Assembly (NCBI GenBank): GCA_964349125.1
Contig: CAYGFH010000005.1
Span: 38,211 to 98,735 of the forward strand
Length of the DNA stretch: 60,525 bases
Direction: 5' to 3'
Origin: an uncultured Gammaproteobacteria bacterium
Lineage (GTDB): Bacteria; Patescibacteriota; Microgenomatia; UBA10105; UBA927
The translations under genes and the position numbers were made by a program. The notes below the pieces were generated by a model. It was not told the origin of the DNA. It saw only the letters and a program-made list of their open reading frames with translations, and searched no databases. The stretch's first letter is position 1. Each line of letters starts with the position of its first letter. Positions 18,758 through 23,849 of the stretch are shown here, piece by piece.

Positions 18758-18830
18758 AATTGACACGTCGCCTACGCGACATAGTTCCTTCTAAGCTCAT
18801 TCATATGAATGAATTCGCTAAGTAGTCACT

Positions 18831-18852
18831 AAAAAACCCGCTTATCGCGGGT
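18831..18852 (-). terminator. Intrinsic terminator (attenuator C:D hairpin) upstream of the Nudix-RSH gene
   Basis: Minus strand ACCCGC-GAUAA-GCGGGU followed by U-tract. Confidence 0.75.
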
Positions 18853-18884
18853 GTAATTTATAAGGTTTTATGATTCCTATTCCA

Positions 18885-18953
18885 TTACACCCTCGACCCA
18901 TCCCAAAGAAGGGCTGGTTTTCGTGTAATAAAATGGACGACGAATTGATTCAT
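18885..18953 (-). CDS. Putative attenuator leader peptide MNQFVVHFITRKPALLWDGSRV*
   Basis: TACTAT 7 nt upstream; stop codon lies inside the antiterminator strand (18884..18892). Confidence 0.6.
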   Translation of the reverse strand: MNQFVVHFITRKPALLWDGSRV

Positions 18954-19009
18954 AAAACTCATAGTAATGTATCACACATATTTGAAATATGTCAACTCTT
19001 TGTCATAAC

Positions 19010-19038
19010 TTCAAAGCTAAGCTTTGAAATTTTCCGGA
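19010..19038. repeat. Palindrome TTCAAAGCTAAGCTTTGAA plus tail ATTTCCGGAG, copy 1
   Basis: Inverted second copy at 40810..40839. Confidence 0.85.
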
Positions 19039-19318
19039 GCGTATGGATGGGCTGTAAAAACGATAAAACCCCACTTTTTCAAATTGAATCAATGGGGCTT
19101 TAATCACGTATTTCTTTTTTTAAGCAGTGTTACCGTGTGGGGGAGATGTCTCAATCCCGACGTATGTCGGGACTAGGAAAACTCCCACACACACAGATAT
19201 TAATACTTAGTCAAATTGAATTGACTATTTTTTCCTGCAGGTTCATGTGTCTGGAAGTTTTTTCAGTGTCCGAAAGTTAGCTCTCGAGGGCGAATCGAAA
19301 ATATCTTTCGGGTTGGGT

Positions 19319-19756
19319 TTATTGTTGGGTTGCTTCTGGCGTAACTTTGAAAATAGTGCCAATCAAAGCTAATATCCCAGTGACTGTAACCAGAACGGTG
19401 TAAGCCAGCATAATCCAGCCATCCGCAACTTGAAATTCAGCGAGTTCATGAATTCCAAATGGGGTAACCTGAGTGACTAACACCATGCCAGTTGCCAAGG
19501 TTACAAAACCCATAACACCAACTAAAACTCTTGCGATTATCGGAGTTTGAGAATTGTTGAGCCAAGGGCTCATTGCCAAAAGCATGCCTAACGTACAGCC
19601 AAGAGTGTAGGAGAACATATAGTTTGTGCCACCGCTGACTGAAAACCAAACAGCATCTTCAGTCCACGCATTCACTGCGGTTTGAGCGGACCAAAGAAAT
19701 GCAAATGACAAAACTAACCCGGCTACTGTCACAAGCAATCTACCTAAATTCTTCAT
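19319..19756 (-). CDS. Four-TM membrane protein
   Basis: Four hydrophobic helices; strong SD AAAGGAGGTA. Confidence 0.85.
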   Translation of the reverse strand: MKNLGRLLVTVAGLVLSFAFLWSAQTAVNAWTEDAVWFSVSGGTNYMFSYTLGCTLGMLLAMSPWLNNSQTPIIARVLVGVMGFVTLATGMVLVTQVTPFGIHELAEFQVADGWIMLAYTVLVTVTGILALIGTIFKVTPEATQQ

Positions 19757-20066
19757 GGTCTACCTCCTTTCTTTATCATGATCTTCATCAGTCGCCCGAG
19801 GCACAGCCTCTCTCCAAAGCTGATGAAGTGTCAGATCGCATCCGTGGCGTATGGCTGTCCCAGCCGCCTGCGATCGGGGTCAAAGATGACCTGTGTGAAA
19901 AAGAAGAAGGTCATCTTCTGTTTCATTCAGGCCACCTATGTCAAAAAGGAGTGTTCTGCAGAAAATTGGTAATGTGCAATATAAAAAATACGTATTGATA
20001 CAAAGCCGCAAATGGCCATATTCAACGAATAGAGTATAACACTATAAGCTATATATATCAAACCAA

Positions 20067-20140
20067 GGACACGTCGCTCACGCGACATATGTGGCAGTAC
20101 GCCTTGCTCAGGCTTAGGCTACTGCCACAAAAAAATCCCT
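20067..20140. repeat. Dispersed repeat GGACACGTCGCT...ATATGTGGCAGTACGCC...AAAAATCCCT, copy 1
   Basis: First 37 nt nearly identical to 21032..21068 and both copies end in AAAAATCCCT; partial copy at 18762..18783. Confidence 0.8.
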
Positions 20141-20200
20141 AGATCAGTCAGACGCGTTTGCCTGAGATATAAGGATTTATGTTTGTTCGTATCTTATCTT

Positions 20201-20286
20201 TTTCTACAACGCGTTAATTGAAACAATCAACCCCGATACAATCGGGATCAACGCAATTGATTGCTTCAGAAAGAGCGTTGTAGAAA
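20201..20286. repeat. Long REP/MITE-like imperfect palindrome
   Basis: Ends TTTCTACAACGC / GCGTTGTAGAAA with a central CCCCGA-TACAA-TCGGG hairpin. Confidence 0.75.
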
Positions 20287-20466
20287 TAGGTGAAAGGGTC
20301 ATATGAAATGGATTGTCTGCACGATTGCAGCAAAAGTTTCATAGTTTTTTTCAGCTATTTTTTTGGGGAATCCGACGTTTGTCAGATTACGCTCAAGTTC
20401 ACCTTCTCCGGCGCAAAACCAAGAATTATCATCTTGGCTGAAGGATGCAAGACCGGAGAAGGGAGG

Positions 20467-20539
20467 CGGGGATGGCAGGACTCGAACCTACAACCGCTGC
20501 ATTTAAAGTGCAGTATTCTGCCAATTGAACTACATCCCC
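20467..20539 (-). tRNA. tRNA with anticodon UUA (ochre-suppressor type), Trp-like body, no encoded CCA
   Basis: GGGGATG TA GTTC AATTGGCA GAAT A CTGCA CT-TTA-AA TGCAG CGGTT GTAGG TTCGAGT CCTGC CATCCCC G; all four stems pair. Confidence 0.9.
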
Positions 20540-20552
20540 GAACTTAAGAAGA

Positions 20553-20627
20553 CCACACTTCCCAATGGATTCATTCCTCGGAGGACCCGATGAATCCAAA
20601 GCTACCGTTATAACTCGGGAAGTGTGG
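20553..20627 (-). ncRNA. Structured spacer element between the two atypical tRNAs
   Basis: 11-bp stem CCACACTTCCC/GGGAAGTGTGG enclosing a 9-bp stem TGGATTCAT/ATGAATCCA and a small TCCT/AGGA hairpin. Confidence 0.55.
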
Positions 20628-20630
20628 AGG

Positions 20631-20702
20631 TGCCCACGGAAGGATTTGAACCTCCGCTCTTTGCACGGTGAGTGCAATGCTCAACGACTGAGCTGCGTGG
20701 GC
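20631..20702 (-). tRNA. Atypical tRNA(CAC), Val-like or pseudo-tRNA
   Basis: GCCCACG CA GCTC AGTCGTT GAGC A TTGCA CT-CAC-CG TGCAA AGAGC GGAGG TTCAAAT CCTTC CGTGGGC A; C8, no D-loop GG and C37 are non-canonical. Confidence 0.7.
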
Positions 20703-20949
20703 AAGAACTGTGCCTTTTTTCTATCTACCCCCCCCCAACAAAAAGAAAGATACAGATACAAACAACAAAAAAGCTATCTGTTGCTTGTGTCTGTATCTTC
20801 ATCTGATGATGTAAACGTGCAAAAACGAACGTTTTGAGAGTGTATCATAAACGATCAGTATTTCGCAATCTATTCTTTATTTCTCTGACATGTCTCTTGC
20901 GGATATTTGTGGCACAGCGCGCCCCAAAATTCTTGTTAATACCTATTTC

Positions 20950-20975
20950 GCTATCATGTAACGGTACATGATAGC
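20950..20975. repeat. Palindrome GCTATCATG-N8-CATGATAGC, copy 2
   Basis: Matches 6916..6941; extends to tatttc...gaaata (20944..20981). Confidence 0.8.
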
Positions 20976-21031
20976 GAAATACTGAAACTGTCCACATGTC
21001 AAATATACGGAATCAGATAGTAATCTATTAT

Positions 21032-21160
21032 GGACACGTCGCTTGCGCCACATATGTGGCAGTACGCCAAGGAGTGCAATGTATCCAGCTTTGCCGGATA
21101 GTGCCTCGTACGCCTTTTCTCTATGAATCGAACGGGCTACGATTGCACTAAAAAATCCCT
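21032..21160. repeat. Dispersed repeat, copy 2, with an internal insertion flanked by GTACGCC duplication
   Basis: Same ends as 20067..20140; GTACGCC at 21062 and 21107. Confidence 0.75.
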
Positions 21161-21306
21161 CGGGAGTTCAACGCAAATGTTGAATCTCGGGGGACTTAAT
21201 TACGGTCTCGCAAAGGGGGATTGGATCAACCCCGATTAAATCGGGACTGAGTAAAACCCCCTTTCTTCTAAATTGTTGTATTGCACTAACCGCCGGTTCA
21301 CGCCTG

Positions 21307-21813
21307 TTACACATCCACTTTCTCAGGTGGAGGAATTTTGGGAACTTTTTCCCGTTCAAAAAAATGCCGTTCCGCCCAAGGAAACAATGACCAGAACAAA
21401 ACGTTACCCAGCACAAATGGAAGATCAATTAGCATAAGTAACGCAGGGAGCACTGCTGATGCTACAAACGCGCTGATTGTGTTTTTCGGCTTCGCTGTAA
21501 TTCCAGTTGAATGATTCCAACTAAAACCCAGGTAATACGCACCTATGAAGCCGGATAGTATGCCAGCGATGAGCCTGTTAATTCCTGCAGTTTCCATAGA
21601 GACGAACGTGAGAAATACCGCGATCAAAAAGGCGAGTATCTGTTCGATGTTCGCAGTATTTTGATCATCATCGTATCTGGTGATCCTCCTTTCCTTTTTG
21701 CTCTTCATTCTTGATACGGCGACAAGCAAGTTTCCAAAAATCGCCAGAAGGCTTGCCAGAACTGCTAAAACTGCGAGCCATTCGTGCCAGTTCGATGGAT
21801 ATTGAATTACCAT
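21307..21813 (-). CDS. Membrane protein, hypothetical
   Basis: Several TM segments; closely coupled to the upstream ORF. Confidence 0.8.
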   Translation of the reverse strand: MVIQYPSNWHEWLAVLAVLASLLAIFGNLLVAVSRMKSKKERRITRYDDDQNTANIEQILAFLIAVFLTFVSMETAGINRLIAGILSGFIGAYYLGFSWNHSTGITAKPKNTISAFVASAVLPALLMLIDLPFVLGNVLFWSLFPWAERHFFEREKVPKIPPPEKVDV

Positions 21814-21815
21814 GA

Positions 21816-22064
21816 TTACCTCTGCATTCTGCTTAGTGCTTTACCAATCAGCCAGCACCCTCCGATTGGGGCTATAAGACAACAAGTCCCTACACCAAGA
21901 ACGAGTAAGGTTTGAATAACTGATGGGAGGTTAGCCATTGCATTCCTCCTTATTCCGGACGCACGCCGAAATACTTGAGCGTGCCGAACTTGGGCGCTTC
22001 TAACAAAATAACTATGACGATGCCTGCGCCTGTTGCGACGAGCAAAAATTTCCACCATGGCCAT
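21816..22064 (-). CDS. Small basic membrane protein
   Basis: Arg-rich N-terminus, one TM, AAAGGAG upstream. Confidence 0.65.
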   Translation of the reverse strand: MAMVEIFARRNRRRHRHSYFVRSAQVRHAQVFRRASGIRRNAMANLPSVIQTLLVLGVGTCCLIAPIGGCWLIGKALSRMQR

Positions 22065-22558
22065 CTCGTTTTCATCTTATTTCGATTCTCCTTTCGTTTC
22101 TAAGATGATATTCCAAAAAAATAGTCAATCCACGTTCGTTGGCTATTTTTCATGGAATACCATGTGAATCCAGTTAGAAAATTGCGTTACAACAATGTCA
22201 AGGTGCTAAGCACCGCAGTCCCGTAGCATCGCTCTTCCAATAGAGAAGTAAGATGTTAGCGGGGCAATGTGCGAGACTTTTGGGATTATAGCAAAATGCA
22301 TCGGGTTTTGTGAAACATCCTGTCTGGTAGCTTCAAACAAAAAGGGCACTTATTACTATAAGCCTTTCTATGGTATAATACAGAGGCAATCTTTGGCAGA
22401 AGCGCCAAAACGATTGTTTTTTGCACGTTTACATCCCCCATATTACAGAACTACCATTCTGTTGTCGCGCGCATTTGGGATACATACTACATGTATTTCA
22501 ACTGTGCGCGACACACAATTTTCAATTCTATTTAAACAGTAAAGGAAAAAGAGTAATC

Positions 22559-22882
22559 ATGTCAAAGAGAAGAATGGTAATAAGAACTGGTTTGGACCAA
22601 AAGAATGTAGACTACGTAATAGAAACCGCGGTTTCAGTAATGGGAATCATTACTGGGAAAATCGGGGACAATGTACTTGAGTTCACATGCAAAAGTGATG
22701 TACCCGCAGACGAAATGTATCTTACATTTGAATTCGGTCTCACTAGAGGTGCCTCAACTTTCCTCACAACGTACGAGGAGATTTTCGCGAATGTTGGTTG
22801 GGACTTTGGTGAGCTGGAAATCATTCGTGAGGATGATATTCCAGAGTCTGCAATTTCGCAGATAGAACTCAAGTTGCAATAA
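22559..22882 (+). CDS. Small acidic hypothetical protein (107 aa; start MSKRRMV)
   Basis: AAGGA upstream; downstream hairpin tggccgttatt/gtaatggcca. Confidence 0.75.
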   Translation: MSKRRMVIRTGLDQKNVDYVIETAVSVMGIITGKIGDNVLEFTCKSDVPADEMYLTFEFGLTRGASTFLTTYEEIFANVGWDFGELEIIREDDIPESAISQIELKLQ

Positions 22883-22964
22883 TCATTGCCTTTGGCCGTT
22901 ATTCGGTCGCGCCGTAATGGCCAAGGGTGTTGGTGTGTTTTGTTGTATGGGGGATTGATTTTAC

Positions 22965-23849
22965 TTAGTGAAACATCTCCATGATAATCCGTCCGCTTTC
23001 CCAGAAGCCGTACAAAGCCAGTAGAATAAAGGCAATCGTACCCGCAAACGAAATGTATTCATTTTTCACTGCCTGTATTGTCTTGGCGGGGGAAATAAAC
23101 AGTGCAATATTCAGAATCGTATGGGCGGATATGACGCCGATGGCAAATCCGTAGACGTTAATGACACTAAAAAGTGGCACATATCCGGCAAAATCATCCA
23201 AGCCCAGTATAAAAGGAACAGATGCGGAAAATACAAGCAATTGTTTCCAAGATAATTTACTCTGACCTTTTAACTTTTCTCCAAGATTCGGCATGATGCG
23301 GGATAACACGGGGTCTGTGAGCTTGTTTATACCGCCTAAGAATCCTGAAAGGGCCTGAAATATAGCGTTTTTGACCCCATGACCCGCTTTCCAGGTTTCA
23401 AAGTGCTCCAGTGAGCCATGCGCCAGTTCAAACAATACCAGAGCCGCAAGCGCGACCATGAGAGCGAGCAGGATGTGCACATCTTTGAACAATACCCAGA
23501 GACCGATAATGGCAATCGTTCCCAGGGCGTTGCCTGCCGCCGTGCCGATCTCTATGGCCACTCTATTTTTCCATCCGGTGTTTGTGGTCATGAGCCTACC
23601 CATGAAAATAGCGAAATCGATGGATGTCTTGAGATAGATGGTTATACCGATTGCCACATCCACCCAGTGAATATTCATGTCTATAACTTCTCTGACGGGA
23701 AACAGATTAAAAAATAAGAGAGCACTATGAAGAGTGAAAATGAGCACCAGAAGAACCACGACTGTAAGGCAGAGGGGGACGAGCTGACGCAATAATCTGG
23801 AATCCTCTACGGTTTTGACAAATACATTCATTGTCACAGTATACCTCAA
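22965..23849 (-). CDS. CadD-like (LysE superfamily) membrane transporter
   Basis: TSIDFAIF and LGLDDFAGYVPLF resemble the two CadD repeats; multiple TM helices. Confidence 0.65.
   Translation of the reverse strand: MRYTVTMNVFVKTVEDSRLLRQLVPLCLTVVVLLVLIFTLHSALLFFNLFPVREVIDMNIHWVDVAIGITIYLKTSIDFAIFMGRLMTTNTGWKNRVAIEIGTAAGNALGTIAIIGLWVLFKDVHILLALMVALAALVLFELAHGSLEHFETWKAGHGVKNAIFQALSGFLGGINKLTDPVLSRIMPNLGEKLKGQSKLSWKQLLVFSASVPFILGLDDFAGYVPLFSVINVYGFAIGVISAHTILNIALFISPAKTIQAVKNEYISFAGTIAFILLALYGFWESGRIIMEMFH

Follow-up and report, generated by a model that had tools for sequence, protein, structure and literature searches.

The window analysed here, a 60,525-nt stretch of contig CAYGFH010000005.1 from a patescibacterial genome (G000), contains on its minus strand a cassette of ~650 nt (20204-20849) that comprises, in order, a -10-like box, a leader hairpin, a transfer RNA (tRNA) gene with the anticodon CAC, a hairpin, a tRNA gene with the anticodon UUA, a second hairpin, and a closing hairpin. 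All coordinates are those of the window unless a contig is named, and the cassette is read on the minus strand. It is flanked by p294, which encodes a conserved 294-aa membrane protein, and on the other side by p880, an 880-aa gene. Cassettes of the same kind were found in a sister species (G001, contig CAYSEV010000014.1, also denoted L013) and in the Logan contig SRR11476867 (L051), whose p294 is 79% identical and which was obtained by fetching contigs encoding close p294 homologues. A covariance model (R1) was used only for screening the fetched loci, being unspecific (the tRNA-Phe of the family scores 82 bits). A preliminary description of the window had located the leader hairpin, a G9 run, both tRNAs, and the branched hairpin after each of them, and every one of these elements was recovered where it had been placed. 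The parts of the cassette are as follows.

20844..20849, minus strand: -10-like box TATGAT, which may serve as the promoter of the cassette; G000 and G001 agree throughout the wider block TATGATACACTCTC, and L051 has TGGTATAAT in the same position.
20808..20836, minus strand: leader motif of 29 nt, CAAAACGTTCGTTTTTGCACGTTTACATC, with the palindrome AAAACG-TT-CGTTTT inside it; its conservation in G001 and L051 is ~70-80%.
20746..20800, minus strand: leader hairpin of 55 nt with ~23 bp and a 7-nt loop (-28.8 kcal/mol, z -7.75), followed by UCUUUCUUUUUGUU.
20737..20745, minus strand: U-rich tail CUUUUUGUU directly after the leader hairpin; G001 has U7.
20728..20736, minus strand: G9 run, the same in three assemblies; G5 in G001 and none in L051, so that it does not belong to the conserved parts.
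20631..20702, minus strand: slot-1 tRNA with the anticodon CAC and discriminator A73; irregular, its closest relative being the tRNA-Val(CAC) of the family (77%).
20553..20627, minus strand: spacer hairpin 1, a branched hairpin of 75 nt with an 11-bp closing stem, preceded by a CCUCC linker (-37.7 kcal/mol, z -4.81).
20467..20539, minus strand: slot-2 tRNA with the anticodon UUA (ochre type) and discriminator G73; canonical, with a G001 ortholog that has UCA.
20400..20464, minus strand: spacer hairpin 2, 65 nt, after CCUCC (-31.5 kcal/mol, z -5.91).
20204..20283, minus strand: closing hairpin, CUACAACGC...GCGUUGUAG, ~120 nt beyond spacer 2; its core CUUUCUGAAGCAAU is conserved.

None of 200 shuffled sequences reached the folding energy of the leader hairpin, spacer 1, or spacer 2. 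Taken as a whole, the 451-nt block has a strong structure (z -7.6), and its global fold is a chain of independent local modules with no long-range helices. A 491-nt block that includes the G9 run and the UUA anticodon is identical in three assemblies, two from ENA and one from Logan. Since these are independent, the cassette is not an assembly artefact.

The order of parts in G001 matches that in G000: a TATGATACACTCTC box, a leader hairpin with U7 and then G5, a tRNA, a hairpin with the CACAC stem, a second tRNA, and a hairpin with the GCAUCCU motif. The L051 cassette occupies the same locus as that of G000, between p294 and the 880-aa gene, and runs from a TGGTATAAT box through a leader hairpin, a tRNA(UCA), CCUCC with a CACACAC-stem hairpin, a tRNA(CAU), and a GCAUCCU hairpin to a closing hairpin followed by U6. 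All three species keep the stems of the leader and of the CACAC spacer as well as the GCAUCCU motif and the closing hairpin. In the leader hairpin, the outer stem AAGAYACAGA/TCTGTRTCTT is common to the three (AAGACACAGA/TCTGTGTCTT in L051), while the inner stem differs in sequence and still pairs, with z values of -7.75, -7.14, and -6.06 across the three species. The proposal of a discrete tRNA cassette behind a leader hairpin is thereby borne out. The closing stem of spacer 1 (CACACUUCCC/GGGAAGUGUG) is kept in G001 and L051 with compensated indels. Spacer 2, closed by CCUUCUCCGG/CCGGAGAAGG, has in its interior the GCAUCCU motif shared by all three species. Conservation of the spacer stems in homologues, on which the preliminary description had made its own reading depend, was therefore found in both relatives. 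It should be noted that RNAalifold was uninformative for the spacers because MAFFT leaves the indel-rich stems out of register. The tip of the closing hairpin carries an insert resembling a repetitive extragenic palindrome (REP), CCCGAUUGUAUCGGG, in G000 and G001. The closing hairpin of L051, judged by the U6 that follows it, is likely the operon terminator there.

Within this scaffold, the anticodons differ from species to species: CAC and UUA in G000, UUA (slot 1) and UCA (slot 2) in G001, and UCA and CAU in L051. Of the six cassette tRNAs, four carry anticodons for stop codons. The non-tRNA scaffold is constant, the tRNAs are variable, and the tRNA slots are exchangeable, which agrees with the earlier suggestion that the anticodons within the scaffold differ. 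Two other features pointed out at that time, the G9 run and the CCTCC after the tRNAs, are both present in G000 as described, but neither G9 nor the exact CCTCC is conserved. The slot-2 tRNAs of G000 and G001 are orthologous: they are 79% identical and have both the acceptor stem (GGGGAUG/CAUCCCC-G73) and the anticodon stem in common. Pairing is kept at each of their eight stem differences, and the anticodon differs at position 35 (UUA versus UCA). The slot-1 tRNAs of the two species are only 60% identical, and the acceptor stem of the G001 slot-1 tRNA is that of the slot-2 tRNA of L051. From these comparisons, the tRNAs appear to have been replaced or moved between slots during evolution. The tRNA(UCA) of L051 has A1-U72 and G73, which we take to be the tRNA-Trp identity set by the rules of Escherichia coli.

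Both tRNAs of G000 were called by ARAGORN, which placed tRNA(cac) at 20702..20629 and put tRNA(tta) at 20539..20465, and both scored well above the gathering threshold of the Rfam family RF00005 (56.2 bits for tRNA(CAC) and 70.9 bits for tRNA(UUA), threshold 29). The cassette tRNAs of G000 and G001 have standard 7/5 cloverleaves and 5-nt variable loops. All 84 stem cells of these four tRNAs pair (21 pairs each), with nine of the 21 pairs doubly, that is, compensatorily, changed. Neither the 500 shuffles nor any slid register approached the observed stem pairing. Complete retention of the cloverleaf pairs across roughly 25-45% sequence divergence, together with the compensatory changes, indicates that the cassette tRNAs are under selection. 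Each cassette includes at least one stop-anticodon tRNA that is canonical at U8, A14, G18-G19, U33, R37, and T54-A58. In G000 this is tRNA(UUA), which has U8, A14, G18-G19, U33, A36-A37-A38, and T54-A58.

The other tRNA of G000, tRNA(CAC), is irregular, with C8, C37, and a D-loop that lacks G18-G19. These irregularities and the strong structure of the whole 451-nt block could be taken to mean that the tRNAs are decaying paralogues (pseudogenes), or that the block is one composite structured non-coding RNA with no tRNA function, the latter having been among the options of the preliminary description. However, all stem pairs are kept despite the divergence, nine of them by compensatory change, and the fold consists of independent local modules only. 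We therefore consider an explanation of this kind very improbable.

The two tRNAs of G000 share only 55% identity, which is below the identity of tRNA(UUA) with unrelated housekeeping tRNAs. The two are thus not recent copies of a single scaffold, and the earlier view of a duplicated scaffold is not supported. Both tRNAs are followed by CCTCC and do have the common anticodon arm YTGCA-CT-nnn-nn-TGCAR that had been described, but the TGCA anticodon stem also occurs in ordinary tRNA-Phe(GAA) and tRNA-Val(CAC) of related genomes. The absence of an encoded CCA was likewise correctly noted for both, yet it is ordinary, being seen in 33 of the 43 tRNA genes of the 1.61-Mb G000 genome. Compared with the housekeeping tRNAs of G000, the cassette tRNAs reach at most 71-75% identity.

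The code of the host is standard. Stop-to-stop open reading frames (ORFs) of at least 200 codons (table 11) cover 1.43 of 1.61 Mb (89%) of G000, and the long ORFs end in TAA (579, 53%), TGA (298), and TAG (221). Each of G000, G001, and G002, a further genome of the same genus, has two release-factor genes of the family PF00472, for release factors 1 and 2 (RF1 and RF2); one release-factor gene has the short open frame expected of prfB. No 4-kb window gained coding density when TAA, TAG, or TGA was treated as sense. Genome recoding or reassignment of a codon is ruled out by the ORF coverage, the presence of both release factors, and the lack of a recoded window. The UUA anticodon complements a codon that the host uses as a stop, and with a standard code in the host, tRNA(UUA) is therefore of the ochre-suppressor type and not a sense decoder. 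A side observation is a single stop-to-stop frame of 10,931 codons on the minus strand of G000 contig C2 (~206,000-239,228), which would be a giant gene.

Our favoured reading is that the cassette is a genus-restricted, accessory polycistronic tRNA operon, the selected cargo of which would be one or two nonsense-suppressor tRNAs that act conditionally. We hold this reading with confidence and doubt in about equal measure. A conditional suppressor operon is the simplest reading because UUA or UCA tRNAs of canonical form are retained in all three cassettes and stand behind a hairpin that could gate them.

From this layout we infer how the cassette would be transcribed, attenuated, processed, charged, and decoded. 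Transcription would begin at the -10-like box and run into the long leader hairpin. This hairpin and its U tail look like an intrinsic terminator or attenuator by sequence, a function that is not strictly conserved, and in G000 and G001 they may stop most transcripts, so that the tRNAs would be made at a low level or conditionally. Such an attenuator arrangement would keep a potentially harmful suppressor scarce. Transcripts that read through would consist of tRNA, hairpin, tRNA, and hairpin. The long spacer hairpins, which start 4-6 nt past each discriminator base, would isolate the tRNA folds and probably guide 3' endonucleolytic processing. The cassette tRNAs would then be completed by RNase P and the CCA-adding enzyme, on which the 33 other tRNA genes without an encoded CCA must depend as well. 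If charged, tRNA(UUA) would compete with RF1 and RF2 in reading UAA and, through wobble, UAG, which would result in low-level or induced read-through.

Strongly structured 3' flanks are likewise found in about five other tRNAs of G000. A tRNA-then-hairpin layout is recurrent in this genome, as seen at C2:242330-242543, where a long near-perfect hairpin lies between a tandem tRNA-Ala(GGC) and tRNA-Ala(CGC).

A more specific proposal is that of an attenuator-gated module for stop-codon read-through, in which the slots of a fixed scaffold are swapped or re-anticodoned among readers of UAA, UGA, and start-type codons (GUG/AUG). We consider it possible but doubtful. Were it true, the cassette would be a natural inducible suppressor by which the cell, or an element exploiting it, could switch termination efficiency on demand, and it would represent a living intermediate state toward stop-codon reassignment. 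Natural nonsense-suppressor tRNAs that are kept on the chromosome are seldom found, and little understood, in hosts that have the standard code and both release factors. Should the tRNAs be active, the cassette would be a regulated read-through device and a model of the 'ambiguous intermediate' stage, in a phylum where reassignment of UGA happened. Its size (~650 nt) permits direct laboratory testing.

Several observations weigh against a suppressor operon. At the level of the genome, tandem in-frame stops after TAA were not enriched in G000 (5.5%, compared with 3.6-3.8% in control frames), TAA was not over-represented among in-frame ORF pairs, and there was no genomic sign of adaptation to UAA read-through. 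At the level of the cassette, the U run of L051 lies 15 nt further downstream of the leader hairpin and none is adjacent to it, which weakens the attenuator reading. The promoter is a -10 match only: no good -35 element was found, and a consensus promoter scan did not flag the -10-like box. Each canonical tRNA has an irregular partner, which in G000 has C8 and C37 and lacks GG, in G001 has A8, and in L051 has a T arm that is imperfect. The change from UUA to UCA between orthologous tRNAs of sister species is not predicted by a pure decoding role. Finally, at least seven genus-level relatives lack the cassette, among them some that are closer by p294 identity, which implies that the cassette is dispensable.

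The lack of adaptation to read-through, the changed anticodon, and the close relatives without the cassette fit equally well if the cassette tRNAs are non-decoding mimics of tRNAs, serving as decoys or sponges for nucleases or modification enzymes that target tRNA, as regulators, or in the donation of amino acids. In that case stop anticodons would be the least harmful place to 'park' them, given that such RNAs should not mistranslate sense codons. Stems retained while anticodons change between orthologs and slots, an irregular member without U8, G18-G19, or R37 in each cassette, patchy presence among close relatives, and the lack of a read-through signature in the genome are all consistent with mimicry. 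The UUA and UCA members are, however, fully canonical, and A36-A37-A38, a hallmark of tRNAs that read codons starting with U, would be needless in a mimic. A decoy for an anticodon nuclease would be expected to copy the anticodon loop of the genuine target. A partner protein for such mimics was not found: no nuclease, toxin, or defence gene lies nearby, nor was Ro60/TROVE (PF05731) found in G000, G001, or G002, in a search whose positive controls matched. In Rfam, no Y RNA or YrlA was matched, with only tRNA rising above the noise at E<=1. On this balance we regard mimicry as a serious rival, though a rather unlikely one; if the tRNAs do not decode, the cassettes would be a case of selected tRNA mimics in ultra-small symbionts. 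The conditional suppressor operon remains the reading that we prefer.

Other roles for the RNA were considered and rejected. An assignment to YrlA or bacterial Y RNAs fails on the same PF05731 and Rfam results. A known leader RNA family was not recognized, since Rfam at E<=1 yielded sub-threshold noise only for the leader. A leader peptide, encoded by a 25-codon ORF (ATG at 20802) that runs through the hairpin and the G9 run to a TAG, has no counterpart in G001 or L051. Mimicry of an anti-Shine-Dalgarno sequence by the CACCUCC after the first tRNA was dismissed because the sequence is not conserved in G001. A type III toxin-antitoxin RNA array does not fit either, given units of only ~55% identity, a terminator-like hairpin placed before the units, and no toxin family downstream.

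The distribution of the cassette is narrow and patchy. It is absent from G002, from the contigs of five genus-level p294 homologues (P0002, P0003, P0005, P0006, and P0007), and from those of two more distant homologues (P0020 and P0040); the contig of P0001 stops directly after p294 and is uninformative in this respect. Among 81 genomes of the family, the leader-stem pattern was found in G000 and G001 only, and a stop-anticodon tRNA pattern did not recover the cassette in ~400 genomes of the class. An exact-pattern scan of a collection of species-representative genomes returned only G001, and metagenomes of the Joint Genome Institute gave no match to the leader box or the pattern of the second tRNA. 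As for the taxonomic names, the metagenome-assembled genome G001 is titled 'uncultured Gammaproteobacteria bacterium' in GenBank, whereas its proteins cluster with Patescibacteria entries, and the title is probably a taxonomic mislabel. NCBI names the p294 homologues 'Patescibacteria group bacterium'.

In G000, the segment between p294 and the 880-aa gene (18766-22965) holds, besides the tRNA cassette, an orphan ORF of 107 aa and three small membrane ORFs (82, 168, and 145 aa). In L046, the homologues of p294 and p880 are adjacent (~180 nt between them), and other relatives have different small ORFs there. The adjacency in L046 shows that the 4.2-kb segment of G000 is a variable island. Among the neighbours of the cassette, we found no integrase, transposase, phage, toxin-antitoxin, nuclease, or defence family, and they have no informative PHROG match, the sole match being a kinase-like gene 3.3 kb away. 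The gene families of the neighbours rule out a prophage or defence-island context, and an integron-like cassette seems unlikely for lack of an integrase and of an attC consensus.

The position in a variable island suggests another origin for the cassette, namely horizontally acquired and nearly neutral cargo, either a fragment of a phage tRNA cluster or a small mobile cassette, whose stop reading, if any, would once have served a recoded phage. Consistent with this, the cassette tRNAs are not close to the housekeeping tRNAs of G000, REP-like hairpins flank the cassette, and tRNA(UUA) shares 80% identity with a mycobacteriophage tRNA-Asn and 76% with a tRNA of T5-like Aeromonas phages that has the anticodon CUA. 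However, identities of 75-80% among tRNAs are weak evidence of kinship, and no integrase, transposase, or phage gene is nearby. IMG/VR contained no match to the pattern of the second tRNA, the leader box, or the core of the closing hairpin. The leader-stem pattern did give 88 viral matches there, which are unrelated palindromes in prophage-like contigs with no adjoining tRNA and were taken as chance. The fixed locus in three species and the compensatory evolution of the tRNAs point instead to vertical descent under selection. Acquired cargo is thus an explanation that we find quite unlikely, and an assignment to a phage or prophage tRNA cluster was rejected on the gene context and the IMG/VR result.

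We also noted that the tRNA of Aeromonas phage AhSzq-1 (MG676224.1, L028:308-382) is an unannotated CUA tRNA, of the amber-suppressor type, within a T5-like phage tRNA cluster. Around the cassette of each of the three species there are copies of a REP-like palindrome, CCCGATTGTATCGGG (20226-20252 and 21209-21279 in the window, L013:843-915, and L051:7200-7225). In G001, a flanking 76-nt element (20064-20139 in the window) is found at the other flank of the cassette.

The 29-nt leader motif occurs exactly twice in the 1.6-Mb genome of G000 and could be an operator or an RNA element of the 5' end. Its second copy (CAAAACGATTGTTTTTTGCACGTTTACATC) is at 22406..22435 on the plus strand, behind a perfect extended -10 box (TGGTATAAT), and precedes a GC-rich hairpin (GTCGCGCGCA...TGTGCGCGAC) and then the orphan 107-aa ORF (22560..22882). 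This ORF had no match in Pfam, PHROG, or PADLOC, and homologs of it are absent from G001 and G002; G001 also lacks a second copy of the leader motif. The duplicated motif hints that the cassette and the orphan ORF may be co-regulated, or share a regulator, in G000 specifically.

In the remainder of the tRNA set of G000, ARAGORN found no tmRNA (transfer-messenger RNA) on any contig, and no tRNA-Phe(GAA), Cys(GCA), Ile(GAU), Gly(GCC), Gln(UUG), or initiator tRNA, the genome being rated 97.7% complete. A run that allowed introns at a low threshold gave 253 calls, mostly false, and still did not recover tRNA-Phe; the best match of G000 to the tRNA-Phe of the family is the cassette tRNA(UUA) itself. 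We read the missing tRNA-Phe and other essential tRNAs as incompleteness, as the assembly has gaps. Unusual tRNAs that are present include Ile(UAU), Ser(ACU), and Arg(GCG). The tRNA-Pro(UGG) at C7:3974-4100 has its own 3' half repeated ~25 nt downstream (GAGCGTGAGGTCGCCAGTTCGAGTCTGGCCATCCCGAC), which resembles an integration scar.

Classical nonsense suppressors of E. coli, such as the ochre suppressors supB/glnU, supG/lysT, and supC/tyrT and the opal suppressors of trpT, are laboratory point mutants of housekeeping genes. The cassette tRNAs resemble them in their canonical elongator bodies, their UUA and UCA anticodons, an A37 context suited to codons starting with U, and the competition with RF1 and RF2 that they would face. 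Unlike the E. coli suppressors, the cassette genes are separate and maintained in three wild species, have a leader and scaffold of their own, and have no close housekeeping parent.

The closest published kind is the irregular-tRNA polycistrons and allo-tRNAs of Acidobacteria and other bacteria, which have diverse anticodons including UUA and whose polycistron tRNAs have been suggested to act as suppressors and/or regulatory RNAs (Mukai et al. 2017, NAR, PMC5389517). The cassette is similar to these polycistrons in having extra, non-housekeeping tRNA genes in tandem with odd anticodons, and its tRNAs may come from a single transcript. However, allo-tRNAs have an 8/4 or 9/3 acceptor/T branch and a long variable arm of the Ser type, whereas the cassette tRNAs are of the 7/5 type with a 5-nt variable loop. 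The polycistrons are linked to a toxin-antitoxin system or transposon, neither of which was found among the neighbours of the cassette, and a scaffold of leader, spacer, and closing hairpins is not described for them (PMC5389517).

Recoded phages carry suppressor tRNAs that serve their own recoded genomes, as summarized in bioRxiv 10.1101/2024.03.08.584096. Taking that summary as the basis, the cassette is similar in that stop-anticodon tRNA genes occur where the code of the host is standard, and it differs in having no phage genes around it, no recoded region, and no match in IMG/VR.

A further comparison is with the cryptic trn operon, or L-arrays, of cyanobacteria, which are normally silent and conditionally switched on (Santamaria-Gomez et al. 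2021, PMC8421152; TrcR repressor, PMC10272220). These arrays consist of 23-43 sense tRNAs on a megaplasmid, duplicate the housekeeping set, and respond to translation inhibitors via a protein repressor. In contrast, the cassette has two tRNAs, stop anticodons are central to it, and its regulation would depend on a hairpin leader. As in the trn operon so described, an accessory tRNA operon stands beside the housekeeping set and some of its members are pseudogene-like. By this analogy, the cyanobacterial trn operon is a functional analogue for conditional accessory tRNAs such as those that the cassette may provide.

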